Source: a virus | Direction: 5' to 3' (one strand) | IMG/VR virus record: IMGVR_UViG_3300045993_000757 | Location: 1-64,000 of that record | DNA length: 64,000 nucleotides | Part shown: positions 2,951 through 64,000 of the stretch, piece after piece | How the letters are laid out: each line of letters opens with the position of its first letter | How positions within the stretch are numbered: the first letter of the stretch is position 1 | The notes under the pieces: generated by a model | The model's database searches: none | The model's input: the letters and a program-made list of their open reading frames with translations, nothing else | Told to the model about the DNA's origin: nothing | Translations under genes and position numbers: made by a program

Positions 2951-3205
2951 ATGGCGAACACCACCAGCACCGAAACGAAAGCAACGAAGCGCGCGATCCG
3001 ATACTTCACCACCGCCCCCGGCGCGGATCCTGAAACGCAGATGCGAAACGGATCCTTCATGCGCCAAAGCCTCTTCGGCGTTTCGTGGTTCGCGAATGGC
3101 GACTTCATGGGAATGACGGAGCACACCCCCGAAAGCCTGCTCACCGCGGGCCACACTGAAATCCCCCACGAGATGACCAAGCTGCTCCCTGCCTGCTGCC
3201 GCTGA
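2951..3205 (+). CDS. hypothetical protein
   Basis: ATG immediately after promoter copy 5. Confidence 0.7.
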   Translation: MANTTSTETKATKRAIRYFTTAPGADPETQMRNGSFMRQSLFGVSWFANGDFMGMTEHTPESLLTAGHTEIPHEMTKLLPACCR

Positions 3206-4851: not shown

Positions 4852-5087
4852 GGGCAGGACGTCAGATTCACCCGGAAGTCGTCGAGGCATAACGGGGAGC
4901 TTTGTGATTGGGGGGTTCCAAAACCGGCGAAGACTTTCCGATATTCTGGATGCAGTTCGGTCATCCTCGTTTTTTCATGGGGGTGGAGATCAGAATGCCA
5001 CCCCCCACCGGAGTCTCACGTTCGGCAGGGGATGGCATTTTCAGGCCCTAGCGGAGTCCGGTTTTGCCCGCCGTCTGGATCCTGAAA

Positions 5088-5336
5088 TCAGTAGGCGGAT
5101 GCCTTGGGTGCGGCGAGATCCTCCGAGGTCACCACGGTGACTTCGGGCGCCTGGGCGTTGATGGCCTCCTGGACGACTCCGAGGATGTCCTGTTGGTAGT
5201 TTCCGGGGAACTCCGAAAGGATCTTGGCGATCTTGATCGAGGCCAGGTCGGCGCGCTTGTTCAGGCGCAGGTTGTTTTCGATGGTCGAAACCAGGATCGG
5301 TTTGGGATCGGCTGGTGTTTTACGGGGTCTTGGCAT
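5088..5336 (-). CDS. hypothetical protein (MPRPRKTPADPK...)
   Basis: C-terminal part of track ORF 5088..5474; the upstream part forms hairpins. Confidence 0.65.
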   Translation of the reverse strand: MPRPRKTPADPKPILVSTIENNLRLNKRADLASIKIAKILSEFPGNYQQDILGVVQEAINAQAPEVTVVTSEDLAAPKASAY

Positions 5337-5934: not shown

Positions 5935-6305
5935 GCTTCAACTTTCCCAGCGGCTCCGCCTTTCTTCCGGTAGTCGATCTTTGTTCCGGCGGTCATGGCG
6001 GCGAGCTGGATGCGGGCCGTTTCTGACAGATCCTTGAGGATCGTGCGATAGGTTGCGTTCTCATTGCTGCTCAACTCCTGCCCGTTGGCTTCTGCTTTCT
6101 CGTAGAGTTGCTGCAAGCGTTTTGAAATCGTGTCCTTCCTGGCAAGCGTTTCGATCAGCAACACGGCGTAGGCTTCAGCGAACCCGCCCAGCATCATCGA
6201 GCCGCGCTTGGAAAGCCGCTCGAACTCGGCCTCACTGATCTCTCCCGTCATCAGGTGGTGTTTCGAGGCCGATGCTTTTGAGCCATTTTCGGGTCCAGTG
6301 GACAT
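5931..6305 (-). CDS. hypothetical helical protein
   Basis: ATGA coupling downstream; start may be 6251. Confidence 0.65.
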   Translation of the reverse strand: MSTGPENGSKASASKHHLMTGEISEAEFERLSKRGSMMLGGFAEAYAVLLIETLARKDTISKRLQQLYEKAEANGQELSSNENATYRTILKDLSETARIQLAAMTAGTKIDYRKKGGAAGKVEA

Positions 6306-47904: not shown

Positions 47905-50900
47905 ATGCCCAAATATCCGCTGACCTTGCCGAACGGACAGTCGTTCGACATCGACTCGCCGAACGAGCTGTCCCAGTCCCAGCTCGCCGAAGCCCAGGGC
48001 CAGCTCATGGCCCAGTTTGGACAGGCCCAGCCCGACCCGACTCCGGTCGCCGAACCGTCGTTGTCCAATAACGCCTTCGATCCGATCGGTGCGGTGCGCG
48101 ATGCCATTGGACAGGAACTGCCTCCGCCAGAGTTCGGCGCCATGGATGTCCCTGGGGCGGCAGTTCGATCCACCATGGGTCAACTCGGTCAGGGGATGTT
48201 CAAGATCGGGCTTGGAGCCATGGGTCTGACTACGGGCCCATTGGTTGATGTGCTGACGGGAAACACACCCTTCCAGCAGAACCCAAGCTGGGAAACCCTG
48301 GGAGAAACGCTCAATCCCGCGAAGTCCTACGCCCGGTTTAAGCGCGGCGCCATGGCGCAGAATATAAATGACCTAGCGCGTTCTTCGGTCCCCGTCTGGG
48401 AAAGGCAGAACGATCCTTCCATCGCCCAGCCCACAGGGTTCACGAAGTCAGCCATCGATTTCACGGGGGGCGTTGCTTCCTCCGTCATCATGTCCCTTCC
48501 CGCCATGGTCACCGGGATCCCCGGGCTCATCGGGATGTCCATGGCCACGTTCGATCCGGCCTTTGAGGAGGCCCAGTCGAAGGGCGCAGGCGACACAAAA
48601 GCTTTCGCGCACGCCGTCCTTTCCACGGCGTTCGAAGCGGGATCCGAATACGTCGGATCGGCCTGGGCCAAGACCGCCCGGATGATGGAAACGATGCCGT
48701 ACCTACCGCCGACCGTGCGGAAGTACCTGTTCCAGGCAGAGCGAGGCCCCGTGGAGGATGCCGCCAAGGAAGCTGCCAGGAGTTTCTGGGGGACACTCGT
48801 TGGCACAGCCAGCAGGAAGGACGGGATCCACCTCGGCACCGCGACGATGGAAGGGCTGGAGGAAGTCTTCAGCACCGTGGCCCAGCGCATGAGCGCGGCC
48901 ATGCTCTACGACCCGACCCAGATCACGAACATCGGCGACCTGATGATGGACGCCGGGATGTCGTTCCTGGGCGGTGCCGCGGCGGGTGTGGCCTTCACCC
49001 CGCTGGAGCGCCGTGTCGCGCGCCAGAAGGTCGGCGAGGCGATGCGGAGCGGTGTCTTCGAGCAGTACCGCACGGCCCTGGAAGCCGCCAAGAAGGACGG
49101 CGCGTACCGACCTGAGGACCAGAAGGTCGTCAACGAGGCGGTCACCGGCCGTCGCCTGATGGAGCTTGGGGCTCTCTGGGGCAACACCGACATGGTGGCC
49201 AAGGGGAAGGAACAGCTCGCCGCCGCCACCACGCCCGAAATGGCAGCCGCCACGGAGGCGGAGGTGAAGAAGGCCGCGGAAATGTTCCACGCCGTCCAGA
49301 CCCCGGAAGGAGCGGCGACGGCTCACAAGCTGGCGGTCGATCAGTTCGGTGCGGACAGTCCCCAGGCGAAGAAGATGGCCGAGCTAGTGAATCAGGCCAA
49401 CGAGCACCGGCTGGACATCGCCCGTGCCCAGGCCGTGCAAACCTCCGGCCCCGGCATGAAGTCGGAGGAGTGGGCCAAAGTCGTCACCCAGGAAGGTCTT
49501 TCGCCTGACCGCGTCGAGCTGCACGCCAGCCAGGGATTCCGCGACAACGAGACGGGTCTTCCCACCGAAAATCCCAAGGATTCCCAGGGCCGTCCCAATC
49601 AGGAGCAGGAAGGCTACGTCGATCCGCAGACCGGCAAGATCCACATTTACCAGGGGTCCATCCTGGGCGACATCAACGCCGGCCGGGGATCCCGCCGCGT
49701 CCGCCAGCGTGAGCACTTCCGCCAGGTGTTGCGGGAGGAGGCCGCGCACACGGCGCTTCAAACGCCCCTGGGCCGGAGCCGCCTCAACGCCTACGTCGAG
49801 CACCTTAAGGCGAACGACTCGAAGGCCTACCAGGCGATCGTGGACACGCTGGCAAGGCAAGGATACCACCCCGACATCATCCCCGAGGAGTACGTCGCCA
49901 AGCTCTACCGGCAGCAGTCCTGGTTCCAGCAGAAGGTCGATGACTTCATGCTGGCCCTGCACCGTTGGACCGGCATCGGGAAGCTGAATCACGTTCGCGC
50001 CGGACGCTTGCTGATCCGCAGTCTCGTGGAGCATTCCCGGCAGGGGAACCTTCGCGGGAACGCCGGCGCTTTCCAGCCTGCCAACGCCGCCGCCGATGTC
50101 CGCCAGCAGGAGTCGCGGCTGGACATGGCCAGGATCCGCGCCCTGAACACGGAGGAGGCCAAGGTCATCGCGTCCGGACACGCCGCGATACTGACCCAGC
50201 CCCAGCTAGAGCAGGCGATCCGCGACCTGACGACGCGCTTGGAACTCATGAACCGCCAGGGGATCGGCGGCATGGTCAAGCTGGAGACGGAGCGCGTCCT
50301 GAAAGCGGCCAAGGACGAGTTTGTGGCCCGCGAGAACGTCCGGCGTCAGGCCATCCTGAACCAAGCGACCGCGCCCGTGCAGCCGCCGACGCCCAACACG
50401 CCCCAGGGCGGCACGGCACCTTTCGTTCCGGTCATCGACCAGCAACCCCCGACACCACCCCCCAATGCCCCTGATCAACAGCAGCAGCAAACAGGCAGTC
50501 AGCCAGAACATCCGAACGGAAATGAAGGCGGGCAAGCCCCAGAAGCAGGCAATAGCAATAGCCCTGGCAGTCCAGCGGAGAGCGGAGCAGAAGCGCCGAA
50601 TCCGGAAGAAAGCAAGGTAGCCAGCTACGTTCCGCCGGAGAACCCCGGCCACATTGCTGCCGACCTTTCGACCAAGGTTCAGCAGGGGGATTTGACGCGC
50701 GACGAAGGAACCGCGCTGTCGATCAAGTTTGGGGTCCAGGGCGAGTTCGATCAGTTCATGGCCCTGATCGACAAGGTCGCCGCCCGCGAGGCTTCTGGAG
50801 AGGCTCAGGCGGAACGCGAGGCGCGCAAGGCCAAGATCGACAACATCGTCTCCCGGCTGCTCGTGGGCGATGAGGTGGACGGTGGCATTCTGGAGTCCAT

Positions 50901-53900
50901 CGAACCCAGGGCGGAAGACGACCACTGGTTCGTGGTCCGTCACCCCGGAGGAACGACATCCGCATCCAACGTCCCGCCGATCATCGGCAAGATGTTCGAC
51001 CCGGCCTGGGTCCAGTCCATTGAGTCCCGGAAGCTCACGCGCGAGAAGGTGCTGAAGGCGGAGGAGCTGAAGAAGAAGATCAAGGGCAAGGAGAAGCCCC
51101 AGGATGCTCGGGAACAGGCGGCGGCAGAGGCTCGTGCCAAGAAGGAGGCGTTCGAGCGCGCCGAGGCTGAACGCAAGGCCAAGGAAAAGGCGGACCAGGA
51201 TGCGGCCCGCAACGAGTTCGAGTCGGCTTTCCAGCAGGCGAAGGCCCTGGCTCCTGGCGACAAGGTTGGAAAACGAGTCGTCCAATCCAACAACACCGAG
51301 ACCACGGACATCCAGTTCGAGGGCGAGAACACCCCCGAGGACTACGAGAACGTCGCCGTCTTCATCATGGACGGAAACGACGTGGTGAAGGCTTCAACGC
51401 CACCGCCGGCCGCAGGCAAGACGTTCAAGGTGGGCGACCGAGTTCAGTGGATGGACGGGAAGATCACAAGGACTGGCGTCGTCCGTGAGCAAACCGCCAT
51501 CGGGGTATCAGTCAACGACGATGACTCGGGCAGGAACTACCTGCTGGCTTCGAGTGACTTGACTGAACTCAGTAAGCCCGTTTCGGACCAACCCCAAGCC
51601 CCCGCGATCATCGAGGCGTGGAAGAAGGGGAAGCGAGAACTGGCCCAGCAACTCGCCGATCGACTGCCCGAACCCGGTGACACATGGGCGTTCCGGACTT
51701 CCGACACCGGAAACCTGGCTGGGTATGGTGCCGGGGATTCCACCTTCACCCGAGACCTGACGGTGCGTGGCAAGCCTCTGTGGCAATGGATCAACGAGGC
51801 CCAGGCAGATACCCTTCCGAAACCCGGATCCAACGCCCAGGAGAACAAGCCGGCCGCAGGGATCACCGCGGACAACCTGCACAAGCAGAACCTCCGGATG
51901 TTCACGGGCATCCTGAAGCCCATCATCGAACGTGTCCGAGGAATCTTCGATCGCCTTGAACGGGGGAAGAAAGTCTCCCAAGATGACCATTCGTTCCTCA
52001 GTCGGTACAGGGCTTTTGCCACCGAGAAAGTTAGGTCTCTGAATGAGGGGTTTGGGGATGTCCCCGCGGAGAGCATCGCTCAGAAGTACACCGATGACTT
52101 CGAGGGCATTGCCTTGGCCCGAGATTACACCAAGGCCCAACTGGAGGTGGAAAAGAGGCACCTCACCAAGTTTGGGCAACTGTTTCCGACGGGATCCGAA
52201 ACAGGGAACATCATCTCAGGACTTCTGGGCCGCGTCATGGAAGCGATCAATCGCCATGATGGTGTCCCGATTCCTCGCCTCGCATCCAAGATTCCCAAAC
52301 GTCCTATCCGCAAGCCCTCGACCCGCGAGCGTGCCCCCGACCTGATCGACCTCCTGATCGACACCGTGGGGAAGATCGACCCCAAGCTGATCAAGGAGGC
52401 CAATCCAGACTTCAAGCCCACGGGCGCGGCCCGCCTGCTGTTCAGCCCCAAGGGAACTCCAGCCGACCAGGCCATGCACGCCGTGGTGGGACAGATGGGC
52501 GTCACGGCCGACATGAGCATCGACCAGTTCGCCGAGGCGATAACGGCGGCTGCCAATGGCAGGAAGGCCACACGCAAGGGCTGGGCGGCGGAAGGGGCCC
52601 AAAACGACGCGGATGCCAAGCGCGCCCTGGCGTTCCATGCGTTCCTGGATAAAGAACGCCCGTCAGGTCTTAGCGTCTCCGAGTTGAAGATGGGCGACAG
52701 CTTCACGGTGGACGGAGATCCTTTCTCCGTCATCGGGGTGGAGTACGGCGAGGATGGAGGGCCTTTCTCGGTTACCCTGGACGGCGGGAAGAAGTGGGGG
52801 ACCCAGGTTGTCGATGGGAAGAAACCAGTCACGGTTGATGACGGAAGCTTCGCGGGCGTGAACGGCCCCATTGAGCCGGAGACCAGCAAGCTCCCGTCCG
52901 AAATCGCGGACGAGATTCGTCGAGTGGTTGGATTCATCCAGGAGGTCAGGAACTACCTCAATTCCCAGCTTCAGTGGAAAGACAATCACAGCCGCTTTGT
53001 CGTGGAGGAATACCTCAAGGACAACGCTCAGGCCATCGAAGCCGCTCAGAAGACCATTCAGGAATTCAGAGACGTTGCTCCGACTCACAACATCGACGCC
53101 GAGCTCGTCATCGAGGAACTCGGCGGAGTTCCTGACATCACGCTTCCCCCTGAAAAACCTGCGGGCATCCCAGGCTTCTTCGACGCCATCGAGTCCGACG
53201 AGGACCGGATCGCCCGCGAGCGCAACGAGGCCGAGCAACGCCGCGCCAAGGCCGACGCCGACAAGCTCCGCGACCTGGCCAACAAGCCGCTCAAGGGAAC
53301 TGCTGGCGACCTGGGGCAGGGGGCCCTGTTTGCGGAACCCGGCGACCAGGACTTGTTCGCCCCGCCGCCGGCCGACGTTCAGCCCAAGCGCAAGGCCATG
53401 GACGCGATCCAGGCCAAGGTGGACGCCCAGGACGCCACCAAGCGCGCCAAGATCGAGGAGCTGAAGAAGCGGCTGAAGCCGAACATGGGCGGAGAAGACA
53501 TCACGCCGTTCTCCCTCAAGGAGCTTTCTCCCCAGACCAAGAACGACCTGATCGAACTGTCGGGGCTCTACCTGAGCAGCGACATCGTCTCCTTCGCCGA
53601 GTTCTCAACCAAGCTCATCGACGACTTCGGGGACAGCGTTCGTCCCTGGCTCCAATTCGCCTATGAAAGCTCTCGGTTCTCTCCTGGTGCGACTTACAAG
53701 GGATCAATGGACCCGGCTGATTGGGTCGAACAACTCGCCAAAAAATATGACTCAGGTGCCACTCCGGATCTGGAATCAGATCGCTTCCGAACAACAGGAC
53801 AACCTGGACCCGATCGCGGTCCAACTGTTCAGCCTGAAAACCTCGGACCAGCTCAACCTGGTGATCGACCTGTGGCACCAGGAGATTCGCAAGCTGACAC

Positions 53901-56900
53901 CGGAACCCCTGGTGGCGTCAGCGATCGTGGCGATTCTACCACTGATGCGCGCCCAGCGGGCGGTGAACGCCTTCCTGAGCCAGCGGCCAGCCCTGTCGTG
54001 GAACGTCCGGCAAGCCATCCCGGAACTCAACGGCCTGGACGAAGCGGTGGAACTGGGCGTGCTCGAGTATCGGCTGCGGCGCAATCAGACCTTGGATCTC
54101 CGGAAGCTCCTGTCGTCGCCCCAGACGTGGCAACTCCTCCGCCCGATTTTGGAGCGTACCCCAGCGACAACCCCGTCGCCGACCAAGCCGACGCCAACGC
54201 CCGATCCTACCCCTGGCTCTCCGCCGATCCCGGCAACATAGAGAGCACGCTTCCGATGCTGTTCCCCAGCCAGCGGAAGAACGTCTTCCTGGCGGAGCGG
54301 CGGTTCGCGGAGACCCCGGTGGCAGCCACGCACGCCTCGGGCACCGGCCTGGGCGATCCCAAGCGCGGGATCCTGTTCACCGATGGCACCGGCACCGGCA
54401 AGACCTACTCCGGGGCAGGCATCGTCAAACGCTTCCTCATGCAGGGGAAGACGCGGATCCTCATCGCGGTCCCGAACGCCAACATCATCGAGGCGTGGAA
54501 GTCGGCGATGAAGGACTTGGAGATCCCGCACTTCGTCCTTCCCGACACCAGCACCGCCGCCAAGGGCGTCACGCTGACCACCCAGGCGAACCTCCGAAAC
54601 AACGCCGAGCTCGCCAAGCAGGACTTCGACCTGGTGGTCATCGACGAGTCTCACAACCTCCTGTCCAACGAGGCGGGTGAGGCGAACGCGGGTCTTCGGT
54701 CCTTCCGGATGGTGGCCAACCACCCCGACAGCGTGGAGCGAAAGGCCACGAATGCCATCATCGGGCCTGCCCCGGTCCAGGCGGACTACGCAGGCGGAGG
54801 TGATTTCGCGGCTGCCCTTCACCAGTGGGACCAAAAGCGCATCGACAACATGGCGAAGATCAGCGCCGAGGTGAAGCGGATCAACGAACTGAACACCAAG
54901 GCGCTCTTTCTTTCAGCTACGCCATTCGCCTACCACACCTCGCTCATCATGGGCGACGGGTTCCTCTACTCCCTGCCCGACGACAGTCAGCGAACCGGAT
55001 ACAATCAGCCCAAGGGATTCGACCGGTTCCTCGCCGAGAACCTGGGATGGCGGATGCGAACTGGGAAGCTGAACAAGCCCAGCGCAAACGTGGACACTTC
55101 GGTCATGGAGATCCAACTCCACGACCTGTTCGCCAAGCGCGGGGCCATGCACGGCGTCTCGCTCGATGTTCCCCAGGACTACAGCCGGGAGTTCGTCCTG
55201 GTCCGACCGGCCGCAGCGCAGAAACTCGATGATGGGTTCTCGTTCTTCCGTGGCGGCGAGTCGTACCAGCAGCAGTACCCGATCCTCAATAAGGTCTTCA
55301 ACGAGCTCTGGGACTACAACCACGTCGCCCAACTCCTCGAAGCATTGAAGATGGACTCTGCCATCGAACGCATCCGCCAGCACGTTGCCATGGGCAGGAA
55401 GGTCATCCTGCTCCACAGCTACCTGAAGGCGAAGATCCATGCCCACCCCTTCCGGTTCGAGACCTACCCGCCGGAATTCCTGATGGCTTTCAACGGGGCG
55501 GATCTCAAGGCTGAGATGGACCGTTTCCGGAACGATCATGCCGAGTGGGCCAACATCGTCATGCCCGACTCTGAGCTTTCGTTGGAGAAGATCCGCCGCG
55601 AGTTCGGAGACTCCGTGGTCTTCAACAACGGCAAGGAGGCCCCCCGAAGTCGTGTCGAGGCGGTGATCGACTTCAACCGCGACGGTGGCGGCGTGAATCT
55701 CCTGGTCGGTCAGCTTCAGGCGACCAAGGAAGGCGTCTCGCTCCACGACAAGAGCGGGAAGCACCAGCGCGTCATGATGATGGTCGCGCTGCCCATCCGA
55801 CCCACCGATGCCATCCAGGCCGAGGGTCGCGGTTACCGGATCGGAGTGAAGACCGACGCCATCAACGAGTACATCGTGCTCCACACGATGATGGAGCGGT
55901 TCGCCTTCGCCTCGAAGATCAACGAGCGCGCGGACACCGTGGAAACCCTGGCCCTGGGATCGGACAGTCGAAACCTTCGCGACCGATTCCGCGACGGCTA
56001 CCTCAATGCCATCGACGCGGATCCCAACGACCAGCAGGGCAAGGGAAGCAAGGAGGCCGACCGCCGCGCCGAGACGATGTCGGACTTCGACCGGGCCGTG
56101 TCCTTCTACTTCGCCCGCACGAAGAAGAACTCCCGGACCAAGAGCGCCGAGGGGCTGGACTACTACCCCACGCCGGAGCCGCTGGGGCTCAAGATGGTGG
56201 AATGGGCTGACCCAAGCGCCGGGGACGCCCTGCTGGAGCCTTCCGCCGGCCACGGGGCCATCGGCCAGTGGTTCCCCAACATCGGCCAGCACGCCTACCT
56301 GGAACCCTCCGCCGAGCTTCGCAGCGAGCTGGGAATCAAGGTGAAGGCGGGGACCGTCTACTCGACGACGTTCGAGGACTACCACATCACGAACAAGTTC
56401 GACGAGATCGTGATGAACCCGCCGTTTGGTCGGGCGGGGGCCACGGCGTTCGCGCACCTCGCCAAAGCTTTCCGACATCTGGTAATGGGCGGGCGTATCG
56501 TCGCCCTGGTTCCCGATGGGGCCAACACGAACGACAAGATCGTCGAACTCCTAAGGGCCGGGAATGATCCCACGGGGCACTATGACGGCCGAGTGTTGCG
56601 GGCGGACATATCGCTTCCTTCGTCCGTGTTTGAACGGGCCGGGACCAGCGTTCGGACTCGCCTGCTGATCTTCGATACGCCGACCTATTCCGATCTCCAC
56701 TCCGGCCACCGGATCGGAGAAGGGCTTGAGAACCTGTTCCCGCCCACGTTCACGACCAAGATCGAGGCCAACACCATCCAGGAGTTGTTCGACCAGATCC
56801 GCGACCTGGACGTTCCGGCGCGAATCCGGAAGCCCAAGCCCGCCCCAAGCAATCCGCTGACCACACGGGACGCCATCATCCAGACGACATCCCAGGGCCC

Positions 56901-59900
56901 CGGCGTCGTTCCCACCCGCCAGCAGTCCACCACACCCCAGCTTCCTCCGTTGTTCAAGCTGGGTCAGACGACGCACGCGAAGAAGGGGATCCAGTTGTTC
57001 GTCGCCACGCTGACCAAGAGCTTGAGCGATGCGAACTTCTCCGTAGTCAACCGGATCGCCAAGAAGCACGACGGATACTACTCGGGGTACAACAAGGCCA
57101 ACGCGATCCCAGGATTCCAGTTCGACGCCGCGGATCAACGAGACGATTTCGTCGCCGAGGTTGAGCGGGCACTCCGACCTCCCGACGAATCCACTCCGAC
57201 CTACTCCCTGAAGGCGCGCGATCCGTTTGAGGTCAACGACATCACGCGCACCCGCGGGGCCATCATGGCTTCCATCGGAGTGCCGCACGTCGCGGATGCC
57301 ATGACGATGACCCCCGACGAGTTCGCCGCCGGGAAACATCCGACTGTCCTGGGGTTCTCTGGCAAGTCTCTATGGCAAGCCATCAACAGCGGGGATCCCA
57401 CCCTTTCGGCGTTGCTCCGTTCGCCCGCCTATTCGCTCAAGGTCCGTCCGGTGCAGTCGGACCTGTTCGACCGGGAGACGACGCGGAGCATCGCCCAAGC
57501 CTACACCTCGGCGGGAACGTCGCTGCCGAACAACCGCCCCGCCCTGTTCTCGGTGATCGACAACGGGGACGGGTGGAAGGCGCAGAGTCGAAACATCGAC
57601 TTCGGGGCCGGGAAGTCCTTGTGGATGGACGACGCCCTCAAGAGCCGGGGCGTGGAGAACCTTCGGTACGATCCATTCAACGAGGCCTCCGCCGTCAATG
57701 AGGCCACCGTCGATTCAGCTCTCCGCGCCCCGGCCGACACCTTGACCGTCGCCAACGTGCTCAACGTGGTCGCGCCGGAGGCTGCGTTGGATGAGACCAT
57801 CCGTCAAACCGCCCGCCTGCTGAAGCCGGACGGCAAGGCGTACTTCTGGGTCCACTTCGAGAACGGCAAGAAGTCCGGCGTTCCCCGCGGTCGCCCCGAC
57901 TCCTGGCAATGGCACCATAAGGCCGAGTGGTACGTCCCACACCTGAGCCGCTTCTACGGAAAGGTCGAGACCATCGGCCAGAACATGATCGTGGCCTCGC
58001 AGCCGATCCCCGTGGTGGGCGAATGGTCGCCGTCCGCGGAAGGGCCCACGTTCAGCCTCAAGCCGCGCGCCTACGACCTCACGCCGAACGGTGGGAATCC
58101 CATGGTGCCGCGCATCGGCTACCTCACCGGGAAGCACAGCGCCAAGATCCTCGCTCGCGCCCAGGCCCGCGGGGACATCGGGGCCCTGATTACGCCGACA
58201 TCGTCGCACTCATTGGACACGGCCCGGTCCTACCCGTTCTACGCCGTGGACAATGGCGTGTTCGGTAAGGCCGGGTTCAACGAGCCCAAGTTCAACGCCC
58301 TCCTGAACAAGATCCAACCGGGCGATCCCAAGGTCTTGTTCGTCGTGGCCCCCGATGTCCTGGCCCACCTTCCCAATGGCCAGGTGGTCGGGGATGCCGC
58401 GGCGACCATCGAGCGGTTCAAGGATTGGGGCCCTCGGATCCGGGAGCGCGGTCTTCCCGTGGCTTTCGTGGCCCAGGACGGGCTGGAGGATCGGTTCAAC
58501 GACATCCCATGGGACGGTATGGACGTGCTGTTCATCGGCGGGTCCACGGGCTGGAAGCTGGGCGAGTTCGCCGATCCGGAGCGCCGGCGGCGGTGGGAGT
58601 ATGTGATGGGCGAGGCGCACAACCGCGGCATCCCGATTCACATGGGGAGGGTGAACTCCAACGAGCGCCTGACGGGCCACGCCGTGGACATGGCTGCGTC
58701 CACCGCGGACGGGACCCTCCTGGCGTTCGGGGAGGACATCAACTTGCCCAGGCTCGAATCATGGCTGGATCAGTTGAACCACGGGGGGCTGTCTTACGCG
58801 GCTCGGAACATGACGGAGTTGGGAAGATTGCCCACGAGGCGGGAGATTATCGACTTGGCCAGTGATCGGAATCTTGCCTATGAAACCCTCGGGGCATTTG
58901 AGCCCGCCCTGGACGAGATCAACGCCACGCGCAACGAACTTGGGCTGCCCCCAATCGCACCCCGCCAGTTCGATCCGGGCCAAGCTGAGTTCGGTTTCTC
59001 GCTGAAAAAGCCAGTCCGGATGTTCCGCAGCTACGCCGAGTTGGAAACGGGGGCTCTCCAGTTCGAGTCCTGGCGCGACTGGTACTCGGCCGACAAGGCG
59101 AACATAGACTCTATGTTCGGTAAGGATGCCCCGCTGTTCGCACAGGTTCTCGCTGCCACGTCCATCCAGACTGAGGTTCCCGATAATGTCGGTCGAGCCT
59201 TGCGCGCCTACATTGAGATGATTCAGGGAGCGCCATTCACTGGTCAGATCCCATCGGCTAGGGTCAATTTGGAGCGAATCCGGGATGGAGAGTCGATCCG
59301 TGGCCCCAAGATAGAACCTTTTGCTCGGGCCATCATGGGCGATGAAAGCGCGATCGCTGTTGACAGGCACGTCATCCGCGCGATCTTCGGCGAGGACGCG
59401 GTCGCTACTCCGGCACTCATAAGAAAGGCACAAGATGTCATTCGCAAGATTGCGGCGAAACACGGGTGGACTCCTCGGCAAACCCAGGCCGCAGTCTGGG
59501 CTTGGAAAATCAATCTCAACGGGAAAACCCCCCAACGATACCTCGACTCCCTCACTCCCGATCGCTTCGCTAGCACAATCCGTGGATCAGGAGTTGAAGG
59601 ACTCGTTCGATCGCGCACGAATTTTGGACAGGGAACTCAAGCAGGCGTTGGGACCGGGGCGGCAGACACCGGATCCGGAGTTCAAACGGGAAATGAAACC
59701 CCCGCTTACAGCCTAAAGACCCCGCCCGATCACCGGCCGCTCGCGGAGGACATCAACGCTTTCCGCACCGAGTTCCCCACGGCCCCGCCGATCGTCGTCA
59801 ACCAGGACGATGCCGCGCGCGGGGCCCGGTTCGAGAATGGCGAGATCGTGGTCGCTGAGACCATGATGCCCAGCAGCCGCACCGGTCGCCGGGCGGAACT

Positions 59901-62900
59901 CCTGGCGGCTCTCTCAGACGCCGGTCGGCTGAACATTCCCCAGGGATTCTGGGATCGAAGCTGGAAGGGTCTTGTCGCGGCTTCCCCCGTCCTCATCGAG
60001 GAGACACGCAAGTCCATTGGCGGGAACATCGACACCCAAGAAGGCCGCAATGCCATCCTGGCTGAGTTGGTGAAGCGGACATCAAAGTCCTCCGCCCCCG
60101 TGGGATTCGTGCGTTCGGCCCTGGCGTTCTTCCGTGGCCTCGACCAGACGAAGACCCCGGCCTACATCATCGCGGCCATGCAGCGGACGCTGGACCGGGT
60201 GACCGACCAGTTCACGCCACACCAGGCGGGGCCGCAGGGCGAGGCGGACTTCGGACCCACCGACACGCTCCACCAGTACATCGGCGGTCTCAACCGCGAC
60301 GGATCACAGCGGGCGAGTGGCGTTCAGGAACAGGTCTTCGCCGACCAACACTTCGCCCTTTGGAACTCCTTCGAGCCTGAGCTTTCCCGCATGGAGGCGC
60401 GGCTCTCCGATCTTCAGACGGGGCTCCTGGAGGACCACCAGTTCGAGAGTGTCCGCCAGCGGATGCAGCAGATCGCCGACACGGTCCTGGCAACGAACAT
60501 TGCGAACCACCGGCGCGCGGCCCTGAACATCGCCGCCGATGACTTCATCGACCAAGTCCAGGAGGTGAATCCTGACCTCCTCACCCGCGAGGACATCGAG
60601 AACCACAGCATCTATCTCAACGAGGTGAAGGCCCGGCGAGCCATGTCGCTCATGCAGAACATCGAGCGGAACAAGGCGACTCGCGATTACCTGACGGACA
60701 ACCTGCCCCAGTACCCGATTCAAACCCTGAACCGCCGCATCTCCCGGCAGCAGATCCGCCTGTCTGACATCGAGCAGAACCACCCCGAAATGTACGCTCG
60801 TGCCTCCGAGTTGAAGTCGCGGGTGGAAGGCGATCCCGCGGCCCGCGCCGCCGCCGATGCCATTTCCGACCCGGCCATCCAGGAGTGGGTCGAGGTCATC
60901 CATCAGATCCGCGAGAGCGGGACCCAGCCGCGCGCCCTGGCAGCCATGCCGGTGGCCATCCAGAATTCCGCCGCCGTCGCCGCCGGGGTGTTCCAGTACA
61001 AGGCCAGGGCCATGCGGCGGGAGCTGGGGGATCGCCTGGTTCGAACGACCGACACCGCCCTTCGCGCCCTCAACAAGCTCGTCGAGGAACGGCGCAATTC
61101 CCGGCAGAAGGAAGGTCAGATCGAAGTCGCCATGGTGGAGATGATCCAGGCGGCACGCGGGGACGCCGGGGCCAGCGGTGGCCTCTACACCCTGGAGGAA
61201 GCCAAGCGGATGCGGGACATCGGGGACCGCGCCATCGCCCGGTTTGCTCGATTCCTGGGGGCTTCAGATCCCGGAACGCTGCCGGCTGAGCTTCGGGATG
61301 CCTTCATCGAGGACAACCTGATGTCCATCGGGATCGACCCGGCGACCCTGAGCGGGCCCAACTCGTTCGATCTCGACCGGATCGCCACCGATGCCGGGAT
61401 CTCGCGGGAAGCCTTCCTTCAGATCATGGAACTGGCGCGCACCTCGCGCCCCTTCCAGAACATGGTGGTCGCCCTGGCCGACGAGGCCGACGAGCGCGCT
61501 GAGACCAGCATCCTCAACGCCATCCAGCGGCTCCAACGGGTCCGCAACGAAGTCCTGAGCCGCCCCAGGGATCCGGTGGACACCACCGGCCTGACCCCCA
61601 AGGAGGCGCGCATCGCCATCGCCCGATCCGAACGTGCCATCATCCGGCAGGCGAACCAGGAGGCGCTGCTCTCCGCGGCCCCGTTCCTGCGCTCCCTGAA
61701 GCAGCAGACCCTCGAACTCAAGCAGTCGAACCGGTCGATGGACACGCAGATCGAGCGGTTGGAACGCGAGCTTCAGACGATCCAGAACCTCTCCGACATG
61801 GCCAACGCCGTGGACGGAGCGGCCCACGAGCTGGCCCCCGACAACTTCGGGGTGGCCGAGATGGTCTACCAGACTTCGGACGGCGTCTTCATGGCGGAGT
61901 TCCTGACGGCGGAAGGAACCCAGCCCGGCGTCCGGGTCAGCCCTGGCGAGGAGTATTCGGCCGAGAAGATCATGGAGATCATCCTCTATCGGGACGCGGC
62001 CCTGCGCGCCATCGCTGCCAACGTGAACCCGCCGGAGATCACGCGCGGCTTGGAAGTCGCCGTGGACATGGTCCTCCCGCTGATCGACGCCAACTCGACC
62101 CCCGGATCCATCGGAAAGACCCTGTCCCCGAACGGCCTGTCCGAACAGTGGACGAAGTATCCCATGGGCGTTCGAGCCGCGATGCCCCGCTTGATCCCCG
62201 GCATTTCCGGCCGGCGACTGGCGGAATCCATGGCCACCTACGCCCGTGTCGGAAGCAAGGTCACCGCCATCCTCAACAAGTACCACGCCCGCCGCGTCCA
62301 GTTGCTCAAGGCGGCGATGGACTCGATGAACCTGTCGCCCACGGACGAACTGGCGCGGTCCTCGTTCCGGCAGGTTTACAGCGAGGTGGCCCATCGCCTG
62401 CGCGAACACGGATCCAACGTGGCTCCTGGCGATCAGACGTTCTCCGGAAATCACGGATCCATCGTGACCCCGGAGCTGATCACCCTCCTCCGGTACGACC
62501 GTGAAATCTTCAGGGCCGTCCAGGACATCGTGGAAAGCCTGCCCTACGGCGGCATCCGCGAGTCCATCCCCGGCATGGATGTCCGCCTCATTCGCCCCTC
62601 GGCCGAGACCGGCGACGTGGGCCTGGCCCGGTCAGTGAACAAGGACTTCGAAGTCCCCCTGGCTCGCGCCTATTCCGCCGCAGTCACCCTGGCGACGAAC
62701 CAGCAGAAGGTCACCGGACAGAACGTGATCCCCGACATCACCGCGTTCTGGGACATGAATCCGCACCACATCCTGTTCCACATCCTGGACGCTGGGCGGA
62801 ACGACCTGGCCTTCGCTCGCAATCCGCAGCTTGTGGCCTTGGAGAAGCGATACGCGGCCGACATCCGCGCCGGCCGGGCCCAGGCCCCCAGGACGGTGCA

Positions 62901-64000
62901 GCAGGTCGTGAATGCCCTGACCGCCCTGGCCGGGGGAAGAATCCCGCCCGCGACCGTGGCCAAGCTGTTCAACGAGGAGCTGAACCGTTACGGCAAGGTC
63001 GCCCTGACCCGGAACTCCCTGGAATCCGAGGCCCCCAAGCGTTCCGAGGGGGTTCACATCGGCGAGGATGACACGAACGAGTTCTCGTCCCCCGCGGCGA
63101 AGCTCATCTACCCCTCCGACTTCTACGAGTACGGGGCCAACGGGATCGACATCCGGCAAGCCGTGGAGCGCATGGCGGACCGGGCCCAGGTGGCCATGCT
63201 CGCGGCCATGGAGGATGCCGCCAAGACCCTGAACTCCATCGTCAGCCGCCTCCAAGGTCCGATCCAAGGCATCACGTCCGAGGATCATGACATCGTCCGT
63301 TGGTCCACGCCCAACATGGACAAGTCCACCCTGTTCAAGCGGGTCGCCGCGGCCATCGAGGTGCTCAACGACCGGGCGCGGATGCTGCGCGCCGAGAAGG
63401 CCAAGCTGATCGACACCGGGGTATCCCCTGGAACGCTCGTTCAGCTCATGCGGGCCAACTTCCCCATGATCCTGAGCTGGCCGCGCGCCATGCTGACGAA
63501 CGTGGTGGGTGGGCCCATCGCCTCCGTCTACACCATGGCCGCGGTCTACGGCCGGCCGGCCGCGGTGCTGTTCGCCGCCCTGAATTCCATCGGAAGCATG
63601 GCCACGCTGGCATCCGAGTCGTTCCTGTGGACGGCGAAGAAGCTGGGATTCGATGTCACGGGGGGATCGAGCCCCAACTCCTTCCTTTCGAACCGCGCCG
63701 AGGCTCTGGACTGGCTGGAGTCGGTCGGCCTGGGCGTCACCTCGTACTCCCATGCCGAGATCCAGGAGTTGCAGTCCTATATGCAGGGGCCGGGCCTGAA
63801 GAAGGCGTTCTTCCGCGGGGCCCTGAAGGTCGGGGCCGCAGTCGAGAATGTCCTGGGGCAACACGTTGGCGTCTCCGCCGGCGACCGTATCCTGAACCGG
63901 TTCGCCGCCCAGATCGTCGTTCCCATGACCCTTTGGCGGCTGAAGAAGTTGGCCCTGCGCTGGCAGCAGCGACTTGCCAAGATGGATGTGGTGGCCGGGC
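47905..64000 (+). CDS. giant DarB-like polyvalent ejection protein, >5,360 aa, runs off the right edge
   Basis: Frame 1 translated by hand without stops from ATG 47905 (MPKYPLTLPNG) to about 60.2 kb; the track lists no closed frame-1 ORF anywhere downstream. Motifs: DGTGTGKT/DESH/SAT/QAEGR helicase, LEPSAG/NPPF MTase, DFGAG/NVLNV MTase, DNG/APDV/HMGRVNS/ADGT, LAATS/GPKI/VDRH. Confidence 0.9.
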   Translation, partial: MPKYPLTLPNGQSFDIDSPNELSQSQLAEAQGQLMAQFGQAQPDPTPVAEPSLSNNAFDPIGAVRDAIGQELPPPEFGAMDVPGAAVRSTMGQLGQGMFKIGLGAMGLTTGPLVDVLTGNTPFQQNPSWETLGETLNPAKSYARFKRGAMAQNINDLARSSVPVWERQNDPSIAQPTGFTKSAIDFTGGVASSVIMSLPAMVTGIPGLIGMSMATFDPAFEEAQSKGAGDTKAFAHAVLSTAFEAGSEYVGSAWAKTARMMETMPYLPPTVRKYLFQAERGPVEDAAKEAARSFWGTLVGTASRKDGIHLGTATMEGLEEVFSTVAQRMSAAMLYDPTQITNIGDLMMDAGMSFLGGAAAGVAFTPLERRVARQKVGEAMRSGVFEQYRTALEAAKKDGAYRPEDQKVVNEAVTGRRLMELGALWGNTDMVAKGKEQLAAATTPEMAAATEAEVKKAAEMFHAVQTPEGAATAHKLAVDQFGADSPQAKKMAELVNQANEHRLDIARAQAVQTSGPGMKSEEWAKVVTQEGLSPDRVELHASQGFRDNETGLPTENPKDSQGRPNQEQEGYVDPQTGKIHIYQGSILGDINAGRGSRRVRQREHFRQVLREEAAHTALQTPLGRSRLNAYVEHLKANDSKAYQAIVDTLARQGYHPDIIPEEYVAKLYRQQSWFQQKVDDFMLALHRWTGIGKLNHVRAGRLLIRSLVEHSRQGNLRGNAGAFQPANAAADVRQQESRLDMARIRALNTEEAKVIASGHAAILTQPQLEQAIRDLTTRLELMNRQGIGGMVKLETERVLKAAKDEFVARENVRRQAILNQATAPVQPPTPNTPQGGTAPFVPVIDQQPPTPPPNAPDQQQQQTGSQPEHPNGNEGGQAPEAGNSNSPGSPAESGAEAPNPEESKVASYVPPENPGHIAADLSTKVQQGDLTRDEGTALSIKFGVQGEFDQFMALIDKVAAREASGEAQAEREARKAKIDNIVSRLLVGDEVDGGILESIEPRAEDDHWFVVRHPGGTTSASNVPPIIGKMFDPAWVQSIESRKLTREKVLKAEELKKKIKGKEKPQDAREQAAAEARAKKEAFERAEAERKAKEKADQDAARNEFESAFQQAKALAPGDKVGKRVVQSNNTETTDIQFEGENTPEDYENVAVFIMDGNDVVKASTPPPAAGKTFKVGDRVQWMDGKITRTGVVREQTAIGVSVNDDDSGRNYLLASSDLTELSKPVSDQPQAPAIIEAWKKGKRELAQQLADRLPEPGDTWAFRTSDTGNLAGYGAGDSTFTRDLTVRGKPLWQWINEAQADTLPKPGSNAQENKPAAGITADNLHKQNLRMFTGILKPIIERVRGIFDRLERGKKVSQDDHSFLSRYRAFATEKVRSLNEGFGDVPAESIAQKYTDDFEGIALARDYTKAQLEVEKRHLTKFGQLFPTGSETGNIISGLLGRVMEAINRHDGVPIPRLASKIPKRPIRKPSTRERAPDLIDLLIDTVGKIDPKLIKEANPDFKPTGAARLLFSPKGTPADQAMHAVVGQMGVTADMSIDQFAEAITAAANGRKATRKGWAAEGAQNDADAKRALAFHAFLDKERPSGLSVSELKMGDSFTVDGDPFSVIGVEYGEDGGPFSVTLDGGKKWGTQVVDGKKPVTVDDGSFAGVNGPIEPETSKLPSEIADEIRRVVGFIQEVRNYLNSQLQWKDNHSRFVVEEYLKDNAQAIEAAQKTIQEFRDVAPTHNIDAELVIEELGGVPDITLPPEKPAGIPGFFDAIESDEDRIARERNEAEQRRAKADADKLRDLANKPLKGTAGDLGQGALFAEPGDQDLFAPPPADVQPKRKAMDAIQAKVDAQDATKRAKIEELKKRLKPNMGGEDITPFSLKELSPQTKNDLIELSGLYLSSDIVSFAEFSTKLIDDFGDSVRPWLQFAYESSRFSPGATYKGSMDPADWVEQLAKKYDSGATPDLESDRFRTTGQPGPDRGPTVQPENLGPAQPGDRPVAPGDSQADTGTPGGVSDRGDSTTDARPAGGERLPEPAASPVVERPASHPGTQRPGRSGGTGRARVSAAAQSDLGSPEAPVVAPDVATPPPDFGAYPSDNPVADQADANARSYPWLSADPGNIESTLPMLFPSQRKNVFLAERRFAETPVAATHASGTGLGDPKRGILFTDGTGTGKTYSGAGIVKRFLMQGKTRILIAVPNANIIEAWKSAMKDLEIPHFVLPDTSTAAKGVTLTTQANLRNNAELAKQDFDLVVIDESHNLLSNEAGEANAGLRSFRMVANHPDSVERKATNAIIGPAPVQADYAGGGDFAAALHQWDQKRIDNMAKISAEVKRINELNTKALFLSATPFAYHTSLIMGDGFLYSLPDDSQRTGYNQPKGFDRFLAENLGWRMRTGKLNKPSANVDTSVMEIQLHDLFAKRGAMHGVSLDVPQDYSREFVLVRPAAAQKLDDGFSFFRGGESYQQQYPILNKVFNELWDYNHVAQLLEALKMDSAIERIRQHVAMGRKVILLHSYLKAKIHAHPFRFETYPPEFLMAFNGADLKAEMDRFRNDHAEWANIVMPDSELSLEKIRREFGDSVVFNNGKEAPRSRVEAVIDFNRDGGGVNLLVGQLQATKEGVSLHDKSGKHQRVMMMVALPIRPTDAIQAEGRGYRIGVKTDAINEYIVLHTMMERFAFASKINERADTVETLALGSDSRNLRDRFRDGYLNAIDADPNDQQGKGSKEADRRAETMSDFDRAVSFYFARTKKNSRTKSAEGLDYYPTPEPLGLKMVEWADPSAGDALLEPSAGHGAIGQWFPNIGQHAYLEPSAELRSELGIKVKAGTVYSTTFEDYHITNKFDEIVMNPPFGRAGATAFAHLAKAFRHLVMGGRIVALVPDGANTNDKIVELLRAGNDPTGHYDGRVLRADISLPSSVFERAGTSVRTRLLIFDTPTYSDLHSGHRIGEGLENLFPPTFTTKIEANTIQELFDQIRDLDVPARIRKPKPAPSNPLTTRDAIIQTTSQGPGVVPTRQQSTTPQLPPLFKLGQTTHAKKGIQLFVATLTKSLSDANFSVVNRIAKKHDGYYSGYNKANAIPGFQFDAADQRDDFVAEVERALRPPDESTPTYSLKARDPFEVNDITRTRGAIMASIGVPHVADAMTMTPDEFAAGKHPTVLGFSGKSLWQAINSGDPTLSALLRSPAYSLKVRPVQSDLFDRETTRSIAQAYTSAGTSLPNNRPALFSVIDNGDGWKAQSRNIDFGAGKSLWMDDALKSRGVENLRYDPFNEASAVNEATVDSALRAPADTLTVANVLNVVAPEAALDETIRQTARLLKPDGKAYFWVHFENGKKSGVPRGRPDSWQWHHKAEWYVPHLSRFYGKVETIGQNMIVASQPIPVVGEWSPSAEGPTFSLKPRAYDLTPNGGNPMVPRIGYLTGKHSAKILARAQARGDIGALITPTSSHSLDTARSYPFYAVDNGVFGKAGFNEPKFNALLNKIQPGDPKVLFVVAPDVLAHLPNGQVVGDAAATIERFKDWGPRIRERGLPVAFVAQDGLEDRFNDIPWDGMDVLFIGGSTGWKLGEFADPERRRRWEYVMGEAHNRGIPIHMGRVNSNERLTGHAVDMAASTADGTLLAFGEDINLPRLESWLDQLNHGGLSYAARNMTELGRLPTRREIIDLASDRNLAYETLGAFEPALDEINATRNELGLPPIAPRQFDPGQAEFGFSLKKPVRMFRSYAELETGALQFESWRDWYSADKANIDSMFGKDAPLFAQVLAATSIQTEVPDNVGRALRAYIEMIQGAPFTGQIPSARVNLERIRDGESIRGPKIEPFARAIMGDESAIAVDRHVIRAIFGEDAVATPALIRKAQDVIRKIAAKHGWTPRQTQAAVWAWKINLNGKTPQRYLDSLTPDRFASTIRGSGVEGLVRSRTNFGQGTQAGVGTGAADTGSGVQTGNETPAYSLKTPPDHRPLAEDINAFRTEFPTAPPIVVNQDDAARGARFENGEIVVAETMMPSSRTGRRAELLAALSDAGRLNIPQGFWDRSWKGLVAASPVLIEETRKSIGGNIDTQEGRNAILAELVKRTSKSSAPVGFVRSALAFFRGLDQTKTPAYIIAAMQRTLDRVTDQFTPHQAGPQGEADFGPTDTLHQYIGGLNRDGSQRASGVQEQVFADQHFALWNSFEPELSRMEARLSDLQTGLLEDHQFESVRQRMQQIADTVLATNIANHRRAALNIAADDFIDQVQEVNPDLLTREDIENHSIYLNEVKARRAMSLMQNIERNKATRDYLTDNLPQYPIQTLNRRISRQQIRLSDIEQNHPEMYARASELKSRVEGDPAARAAADAISDPAIQEWVEVIHQIRESGTQPRALAAMPVAIQNSAAVAAGVFQYKARAMRRELGDRLVRTTDTALRALNKLVEERRNSRQKEGQIEVAMVEMIQAARGDAGASGGLYTLEEAKRMRDIGDRAIARFARFLGASDPGTLPAELRDAFIEDNLMSIGIDPATLSGPNSFDLDRIATDAGISREAFLQIMELARTSRPFQNMVVALADEADERAETSILNAIQRLQRVRNEVLSRPRDPVDTTGLTPKEARIAIARSERAIIRQANQEALLSAAPFLRSLKQQTLELKQSNRSMDTQIERLERELQTIQNLSDMANAVDGAAHELAPDNFGVAEMVYQTSDGVFMAEFLTAEGTQPGVRVSPGEEYSAEKIMEIILYRDAALRAIAANVNPPEITRGLEVAVDMVLPLIDANSTPGSIGKTLSPNGLSEQWTKYPMGVRAAMPRLIPGISGRRLAESMATYARVGSKVTAILNKYHARRVQLLKAAMDSMNLSPTDELARSSFRQVYSEVAHRLREHGSNVAPGDQTFSGNHGSIVTPELITLLRYDREIFRAVQDIVESLPYGGIRESIPGMDVRLIRPSAETGDVGLARSVNKDFEVPLARAYSAAVTLATNQQKVTGQNVIPDITAFWDMNPHHILFHILDAGRNDLAFARNPQLVALEKRYAADIRAGRAQAPRTVQQVVNALTALAGGRIPPATVAKLFNEELNRYGKVALTRNSLESEAPKRSEGVHIGEDDTNEFSSPAAKLIYPSDFYEYGANGIDIRQAVERMADRAQVAMLAAMEDAAKTLNSIVSRLQGPIQGITSEDHDIVRWSTPNMDKSTLFKRVAAAIEVLNDRARMLRAEKAKLIDTGVSPGTLVQLMRANFPMILSWPRAMLTNVVGGPIASVYTMAAVYGRPAAVLFAALNSIGSMATLASESFLWTAKKLGFDVTGGSSPNSFLSNRAEALDWLESVGLGVTSYSHAEIQELQSYMQGPGLKKAFFRGALKVGAAVENVLGQHVGVSAGDRILNRFAAQIVVPMTLWRLKKLALRWQQRLAKMDVVAG
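50465..50620 (+). CDS. nested +1-frame gene: 51-aa basic protein MPLINSSSKQAVSQNIRTEMKAGKPQKQAIAIALAVQRR...
   Basis: Matches the common small phage protein pattern MPLKKG.S...S.NI..E..AGKPQKQAVAIAL; G/C-ending codons in this frame. Confidence 0.85.
   Translation: MPLINSSSKQAVSQNIRTEMKAGKPQKQAIAIALAVQRRAEQKRRIRKKAR
53747..54241 (+). CDS. nested +1-frame gene: 164-aa helical protein MTQVPLRIWNQIASEQ...
   Basis: Amphipathic sequence with G/C-ending codons where frame 1 is disordered; A-rich leader; alternative start 53663. Confidence 0.75.
   Translation: MTQVPLRIWNQIASEQQDNLDPIAVQLFSLKTSDQLNLVIDLWHQEIRKLTPEPLVASAIVAILPLMRAQRAVNAFLSQRPALSWNVRQAIPELNGLDEAVELGVLEYRLRRNQTLDLRKLLSSPQTWQLLRPILERTPATTPSPTKPTPTPDPTPGSPPIPAT
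59582..59716 (+). CDS. possible nested +1-frame 44-aa ORF (MDQELKDSFDRARILDRELKQAL...)
   Basis: Helical pattern where frame 1 is G/T/S-rich linker; stop TAA lies within CTA-AAG. Confidence 0.4.
   Translation: MDQELKDSFDRARILDRELKQALGPGRQTPDPEFKREMKPPLTA

Follow-up and report, generated by a model that had tools for sequence, protein, structure and literature searches.

The question raised by this locus is whether a short open reading frame (ORF) of 51 codons, lying wholly within a giant phage gene but in another frame of the same strand, is a gene in its own right. The locus belongs to the viral record IMGVR_UViG_3300045993_000757, a genome of 75,109 bp (62% G+C) that has direct terminal repeats and is rated complete; the window examined here is its first 64 kb (64,000 nt). 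The first-pass annotation of this window, made from the sequence alone, had described the small ORF (nt 50465–50620, Table 1) as a recognisable phage gene overprinted entirely inside the giant ORF, and both its coordinates and its match to the phage protein family phrog_2423 confirm that placement. With a probability of about 0.8, we consider the stretch to be dual-coding, specifying a linker of the giant protein as well as an independently initiated basic protein of 51 amino acids (aa), with the small gene being the older of the two.

A phage gene nested within a giant ORF

Translation of the +1 frame gives exactly the 51-aa peptide reported by the first-pass annotation. The size of such an ORF is uninformative by itself, because 19 same-strand ORFs of at least 51 aa that start with ATG in an alternative frame lie inside the giant ORF. 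The peptide, however, matches the phrog_2423 profile with an E-value of 1.8e-20 (residues 1–49 on profile positions 1–49 of 52), which is far beyond chance, and a chance ORF is thereby ruled out. A phrog_2423 search of the whole genome found a single copy (E 2.5e-21). The family-invariant residues P2, N15, I16, E19, G23, P25, Q28, A29, A31 and I32 are all present, as is the basic C-terminal tail, and in an alignment of 55 sequences every invariant and near-invariant column is preserved in the nested peptide. The motif GKPQKQA(V/I)AIAL, which the first-pass annotation had linked to small, free-standing basic phage proteins, corresponds to the invariant core of the family in this alignment. Third codon positions of the nested gene are 75% G/C, 25% A and 0% T, so that the earlier description of its codons as G/C-ending is roughly right. 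AlphaFold2, supplied with the family alignment, predicts a helix-loop-helix protein (predicted local distance difference test score 90.7; helices at residues 9–21 and 26–50), and a homodimer prediction scored 0.01. The nested peptide does not reach the gathering threshold of the Pfam family DUF6496 (PF20106), and gave no Pfam hit at E-values up to 10; two homologues, P0041 and P0057, do pass it (26 and 31 bits, cut-off 24), in their C-terminal halves only.

The surrounding ORF is a real gene, backed by its domains and by its relatives. Pfam and PHROG searches identify a ResIII helicase, an N6-adenine methyltransferase, a second methyltransferase and DUF7178, and the PHROG matches include giant proteins; with many unrelated enzymatic domains in a single giant phage polypeptide, it is a polyvalent protein. 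In a full HMMER scan of 1.8 billion representative sequences, only three relatives matched the residues around the nested site. The nearest relatives, P0003 (5,906 aa, about 48% identical to the giant protein, from an ENA assembly) and P0004 (3,651 aa, about 36% identical), have in common with it an N-terminal module (approximately residues 55–712) and the C-terminal modules, in each case within one ORF, and the giant ORF can therefore be taken as a real, contiguous protein. Residues 712–1174, which include the nested gene, cannot be aligned with either relative. Other searches around the site returned nothing: nt 49800–51300 had no blastn match among phage records, a search of viral contigs with the flanks and the C-terminal part of the giant protein was empty, as were a word-based protein search with residues 500–1300 and a sequence search of the PDB with the N-terminal module. 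Neither Pfam nor PHROG gave anything useful for the N-terminal 853 aa, the following 961 aa and the five upstream ORFs, and no MuF-like N-terminal module could be identified.

The nested ORF has both a start and a stop codon and occupies a second frame of a genuine gene, as expected of an embedded gene. Judged by its sequence, it is an intact and recognisable representative of a phage gene family whose members are mostly free-standing, and it is situated wholly within the giant ORF. As had been anticipated, gene callers miss it: they permit one gene per stretch, and the exact peptide is consequently missing from a collection of 15 billion proteins.

Table 1. Coordinates of the features discussed in the text.
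Feature	Position (nt)	Strand	Description
Giant polyvalent-protein ORF	47905–63999 in the window; ends at 65703 in the genome	+	5,932 aa
Pro-rich host-frame linker	50365–50463	+	Directly upstream of the nested gene; within unalignable aa 712–1174
A/C leader	50445–50464	+	95% A+C (G/T-poor), before the nested ATG; candidate internal-initiation site, Shine-Dalgarno-independent
Host-frame shadow of the nested gene	50464–50619	+	Giant-protein residues 854–905; low-complexity Q/G/E/P/S/N linker
Nested small gene	50465–50620	+	ATG to TAG, 51 codons plus TAG, +1 frame of the giant ORF
Second nested gene	53747–54241	+	+1 frame, open from 53663; just before the helicase-methylase module

Free-standing members of the family

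The first-pass annotation had proposed a BLASTp or profile search with the 51-aa peptide, and had held that its idea would fail if free-standing homologues did not exist. Besides the phrog_2423 match, hundreds of free-standing homologues of 43–58 aa were recovered. The family was found by tblastn in 471 phage records, where the annotated small genes among the matches listed are gp02 of Bcep781, gp51 of SP6 and a 'virion protein' of PB1-like phages, the last of these following the portal and head-morphogenesis genes and preceding the prohead protease. A large protein collection holds 280 homologues of 28–90 aa that are up to 85% identical. Free-standing copies adjoin portal, MuF-like and protease genes, and a library of viral structures returned only family members, including fusions in which the family domain lies N-terminal to a prohead protease.

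The window copy resembles these phrog_2423 proteins (Bcep781 gp02, SP6 gp51 and the PB1-like proteins) in its full-length match to the family hidden Markov model, invariant residues, length, basic tail and predicted helix-loop-helix fold, and the family itself overlaps Pfam DUF6496. It differs from them in that they stand alone between genes, while the window copy lies wholly within the frame of another gene. About 6% of the 160 family loci that were fetched are arranged likewise (see below), and the nested position is a layout variant, not grounds for exclusion from phrog_2423. The large ORFs found upstream of the small gene in the family loci (L005–L164) are very diverse; a scan of 47 of them detected three with ART-PolyVal, one with Phage_Mu_F, a few with terminase domains and one with PurD-like ATP-grasp domains.

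Two frames under different constraints

In the host frame, the stretch over the nested gene reads ...PDQQQQQTGSQPEHPNGNEGGQAPEAG..., and is linker-like, as had been claimed. Across the giant ORF, G+C at codon positions 1, 2 and 3 is 0.64, 0.46 and 0.81. Over the nested ORF, host-frame third-position G+C (GC3) drops from about 0.9 to 0.44–0.5, while G+C at host position 1, which is position 3 of the small gene, climbs to 0.74–0.77; the usual pattern resumes on both sides.

Selection could be followed in a group of related loci with nested copies, the L017 clade, where substitutions were counted at host codon positions 1, 2 and 3, both in a 600-nt upstream flank and in the nested zone. The respective counts were 33, 24 and 78 in the flank versus 10, 4 and 2 in the nested zone for the pair L028/L079, 4, 1 and 41 versus 2, 2 and 0 for L028/L121, and 90, 85 and 104 versus 23, 6 and 2 for L017/L028. 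Flank substitutions thus peak at host third positions, and those of the nested zone at host position 1, i.e. position 3 of the small frame. Between L017 and L028 the small protein is 0.86 identical and the host frame 0.51. The frame-specific comparison that the first-pass annotation had called for therefore favours conservation of the small frame, and purifying selection on the nested frame is clear in the L017 clade. For the lineage of the window phage, such selection would be indicated by the best case that can be drawn from the P0003 protein (see below).

The host frame is constrained in another way. At third positions of the small gene, T makes up 0–4% in nested copies (0% in the window), 18% in free-standing copies and 10% in free-standing copies from loci with a G+C content of at least 0.58; the nested copy of L162, a locus of 42% G+C, also has 0%. 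Since T at these positions would start a stop codon, or an aromatic or hydrophobic codon, in the host frame, its avoidance indicates that the host frame is kept open by selection. The host-frame shadow peptides of different nested copies also align with one another. Because substitutions spare the amino acids of the small frame and T is avoided at its third positions, both frames are constrained, in different ways.

For the two nearest relatives, the +1-frame residues permitted by each pair of adjacent host residues were considered, and the best case was scored against the family matrix by dynamic programming. The giant protein of the window, used as a control, gave a peak of 145.5 bits at residue 854 (next best, 22.6). 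P0003 gave a similarly isolated peak of 110.9 bits at residue 800 (next best, 2.3), and P0004 had no clear peak (7.1 bits). P0003 permits Met as the first residue and a stop as codon 52, and its best-case identity to the nested peptide is 36/51, compared to 11.1 ± 2.8 elsewhere (maximum 23); over the same codons, the host frames of P0003 and the giant protein are identical at 14 of 51 residues. A pattern in which the +1 frame is broken in relatives while the host frame is conserved, named by the first-pass annotation as the other outcome that would count against it, was not observed, as P0003 is compatible with an intact copy and its host frame has diverged.

Recurrence of the nested arrangement

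The 160 family loci comprised 80 viral and 80 metagenome contigs. The frame starting one base before the codons of the small gene is open across the whole gene in 26 of them, and the other forward frame in 7. Nine loci have the small gene nested in a large ORF, always with the frame relation seen in the window. The spanning ORFs are 1,846 aa (L017), 2,033 aa (L028), 1,662 aa (L079), 1,799 aa (L113), 1,361 aa (L161) and 2,264 aa (L162) in length, and at least 595 aa (L005), 1,452 aa (L121) and 2,231 aa (L122) in the remaining three. The host protein of L017 carries DUF7178, as does the giant protein of the window, and that of L122 has an ART-PolyVal match just under the Pfam cut-off (30.8 vs 31.2 bits). 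A profile of the shadow peptides matched at least 208 proteins among those of 101–2,000 aa, a lower bound since proteins over 2,000 aa were outside the search; most of the matched proteins are 1,000–2,000 aa long, and many carry PF18760 (ART-PolyVal), PF23802 (DUF7178) or PF18814. All 120 of the shadow proteins listed permit an embedded family ORF with a Met start (97–132 bits).

One nested copy is present in a cultured phage. Tunturiibacter phage Tunturi_3 (PP885686.1) has a 54-aa family member inside gp128 (222 aa), with a window-like frame relation (L165, nt 3001–3165), which the GenBank annotation does not include. The sequence GGAGG lies 6 nt before its nested ATG, and codon-position G+C flips over the nested gene. 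No cultured phage with a close homologue of the UFOVP175-type host protein was found. Nested ATGs are preceded by AAGGAG (L005), GAAAGGAAAG (the L028 group), GAAGGAG (L161) and, in Tunturi_3, AAGGAGG, while L162 has a nearly pure A/C leader. The closest relatives of the nested small proteins are mostly free-standing, which suggests several nesting events or repeated exchange.

Three other arrangements were seen among these loci. In L144 (small gene at nt 6001–6165), an upstream ORF of 1,153 aa that shares its N-terminal module with the L017 clade continues across the small gene and ends 26 nt beyond it; this looks like an overlapped intermediate, and fits a route by fusion. In L125 (nt 5006–5152), the small gene lies 70 codons into an open frame of 1,085 aa, and is followed immediately by an ATG in the small-gene frame. 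In L017, L028, L079 and L122, a host-frame ATG occurs 5 nt past the nested stop, after a G-rich tract (peptide ...R(Y/F)MP...). This ATG has no counterpart in the window; it could mark where a downstream gene, once separate, used to begin, or serve as a restart site.

The nested gene as a module boundary

Protein identities on the two sides of the nested gene differ sharply between related loci. Between L028 and L121, identity is 99% before the nested gene, 93% within the nested zone and 19% after it; the pair L079/L122 has 98% upstream and 23% downstream, and for L028 and L122 the values are 78% and 87%. Sequences diverge at or just past the stop codon of the small gene. In the window, the nested gene lies between the conserved N-terminal module and the unalignable region, beyond which blocks follow in a different order. 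These comparisons show that the nested gene marks a mosaic boundary.

The leader of the nested gene

The 20 nt preceding the nested ATG rank in the top 0.01% of all 20-mers of the genome by A+C content, and are unpaired in the predicted minimum-energy fold. The first-pass annotation had described an A/C-rich leader like that of other genes of this phage; the composition of this leader is as described, but the resemblance does not hold, as A+C averages 0.54 over 22 other gene starts, with 0.51 being the mean for the genome. A search around the nested gene detected no sigma-70-like promoter. A Shine-Dalgarno motif is missing upstream of most genes in this phage (e.g. those starting at nt 14214, 20367, 46063 and 47905), which suggests that its host initiates translation without one.

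Interpretation and alternatives

The dual-coding reading can be set out as follows. The giant virion protein would be translated straight through, the stretch serving as a flexible, stop-free, hydrophilic linker between the N-terminal module and the variable enzyme modules. On the same late mRNA, ribosomes would start separately at the ATG at nt 50465, perhaps aided by the unstructured, A/C-only leader in a phage that mostly lacks Shine-Dalgarno motifs, and the product would be a separate, very basic helix-loop-helix protein of 51 aa, phrog_2423- or DUF6496-like. Translation of the small gene by internal initiation into an independent basic protein is inferred from these sequence features. Our best guess for its role is that of a head-internal or virion-associated protein, either nucleic-acid-binding or a packaging helper, which would act together with packaged DNA and proteins; this guess draws on the location of free-standing relatives in head modules and on the fusion of some of them to the prohead protease.

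The small gene would be the older partner, with selection acting on its amino acids, and the host frame being selected only to stay open and hydrophilic. Since the small gene belongs to an old and widespread family, the host-frame linker, which is the same DNA read one base earlier, is probably the derived reading. The term 'overprinted' is thus apt in that the gene lies wholly inside the giant ORF, but its usual sense of a new gene arising within an old one is probably reversed here, as a member of an old family has become nested. A free-standing gene of the head module was most probably absorbed into the giant ORF, either by fusion of the flanking genes through the small gene or by recombination, and its conserved DNA may then have provided a junction for the exchange of downstream cargo modules. 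In P0004, the N- and C-terminal modules are joined without the small gene, which fits either insertion or loss.

Several points weigh against this interpretation. A Shine-Dalgarno motif is absent before the nested ATG, and the small gene is absent from both the P0004 locus and the whole 74-kb contig that carries it, so that it is not required by giant proteins of this type. The evidence from P0003 is a best-case inference from a protein and not a reading of its DNA, and no within-population variants were seen in contigs over nt 49000–52500 from which a ratio of nonsynonymous to synonymous substitution rates could be derived for this copy. Sequence and fold searches of the PDB with the small protein returned no analogue, and the label 'virion protein' is an unverified database annotation. 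The independence of the nested lineages, finally, was judged by nearest-neighbour identities over 40 residues, and at low resolution.

Some of these same points would be expected if the small gene were a silent relic, carried in recently, untranslated and too young to have decayed: expression is argued from sequence features, no Shine-Dalgarno motif precedes the ATG, and P0004 does without the gene. We regard this as improbable, since P0003, at about 48% identity, can still accommodate a family member at the corresponding site, although the host frame there is 27% identical, purifying selection on the small frame is clear in the nested copies of another clade, and the invariant residues, ATG and stop have all been retained. 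A programmed +1 frameshift out of the giant frame, yielding an N-terminal module with the basic domain at its end and no independent protein, would make use of the +1 frame being open for 36 codons upstream of the nested ATG and of the run of C residues that sits just before it, and the domain is known to be fused to other proteins. Those fusions, however, have the domain at the N-terminus and not at the C-terminus; the Met-Pro-Leu start of the family is retained in every nested copy, many of these have a correctly spaced Shine-Dalgarno motif, and no canonical slippery heptamer is apparent in the sequence, all of which makes frameshifting very unlikely. We give similarly little credence to the possibility that the stretch is conserved as DNA or RNA, whether for a recombination junction or for an RNA structure, and that its protein-like appearance is historical. 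Downstream modules do switch right past the nested gene, as at a possible crossover site, but substitutions gather at third positions of the small frame and keep its amino acids, which is selection at the protein level, and the local RNA fold is ordinary (z = -1.3). A role as a junction can coexist with a role as a protein.

Lastly, the arrangement could be an artefact, in which an indel in the assembly masks a stop codon and there are really three separate genes. The run of C just before the ATG, and a third-frame TGA overlapping the start (ATGCCCCTGA), are the kind of context that raises this concern. Four sequencing runs, from pond, wetland and riverine metagenomes, provided contigs that show no differences where they lie on nt 49000–52500. 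Runs not flagged as a possible source of the record are included, among them a riverine run, and a 151-nt contig from such a run covers the C-run and the ATG. As independent assemblies give the identical sequence, an assembly indel is unlikely. In addition, P0003 and at least 208 other proteins were called as single ORFs across the shadow, and T-avoidance at third positions reflects a host frame kept open by selection, so that an artefact is scarcely credible.

Other nested candidates in the giant ORF

A second ORF in the +1 frame of the giant ORF (Table 1) displays the same compositional signature, host-frame GC3 being 0.44 over nt 53626–54186. Its predicted protein matches 135-aa open stretches in the +1 frame of two large proteins of vibriophages: a 3,292-aa 'N-6 adenine-specific DNA methylase' of Vibrio phage 1.232.O (MG592596.1; pairwise E 7e-12) and a 3,162-aa protein of Vibrio phage D274 (OZ196038.1; pairwise E 4e-13). 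The host frames over this gene show no comparable similarity to those of the two phages. Searching the protein atlas with this gene returned no usable match, and its best-case value in P0003 is 0.64 over the zone, compared to 0.49 and 0.74 for the flanks. The sequence matches support the wider idea that independent genes are hidden in the giant ORF. Lowered host-frame GC3 (0.40–0.56) also occurs elsewhere in the giant ORF, at nt 51925–52047, 52183–52311, 59170–59346 and 59582–59716; the last of these, a 44-aa ORF starting with GTG, has no Pfam or PHROG match and a weaker compositional flip.

The first-pass annotation had gone further, and proposed that linkers of the polyvalent protein act as landing pads for independent genes. 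Conservation of the second gene in a nested position in Vibrio phages speaks for this, but insertion into a linker is indistinguishable from fusion of neighbouring genes, and the idea is plausible, though only partly supported. That nested small genes represent a general principle, acting at once as independent proteins, linkers and crossover points of polyvalent virion proteins, is a tentative proposal to which we give somewhat less than even odds; if it is true, this one ORF, with two different nested genes that are each conserved in nested form in distant phages, would provide the first instances of a hidden layer of unannotated genes.

Significance and comparison with known systems

Should the nested copies prove to be translated, hundreds of phage genomes would hold an unannotated protein inside the gene for their largest virion protein, and this small protein may matter for the packaging or delivery of injected anti-defence proteins. 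The case also suggests a concrete way in which the modules of polyvalent proteins are shuffled, and would reverse the usual account of overprinting, with an old gene supplying the linker for a newer fusion. Because Tunturi_3 (for the gene described here) and Vibrio phages 1.232.O and D274 (for the second gene) are recorded with hosts or isolation sources, these proposals can be tested at the bench.

Nested genes are well known in phages, from Rz1 within Rz to the overlaps of phiX174 (B in A, E in D). The lambda Rz/Rz1 pair is similar to the present case in that one complete gene, with a start of its own, is entirely contained in a larger gene of the same strand, in another frame, and also in forming, across related phages, a series of separated, overlapped and embedded arrangements, which here would be represented by the free-standing copies, L144 and the nested copies, respectively. 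Rz and Rz1 are, however, obligate partners in lysis, whereas here the host is a polyvalent virion protein and the nested gene belongs to a usually independent family. The overprinted genes of small viruses, reviewed in PMC8227390, likewise have one stretch read in two frames under asymmetric constraint, but in classical overprinting the nested gene is young, while in this locus it is old and widespread and the host-frame linker is derived. Polyvalent proteins of phages and conjugative elements (Iyer et al. 2017, PMC5512222), such as DarB of phage P1, share with the window protein a giant multi-domain ORF with helicase, methyltransferase and DUF7178 domains, and ART-PolyVal is present in other proteins that host the nested gene. 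The text of PMC5512222, searched by term, gave no mention of out-of-frame genes inside polyvalent proteins, and literature searches on DUF6496 and on nested genes in polyvalent proteins found no description of them. What is new here is an old, usually free-standing gene that is nested in giant virion proteins, with its alternative frame used as a linker.

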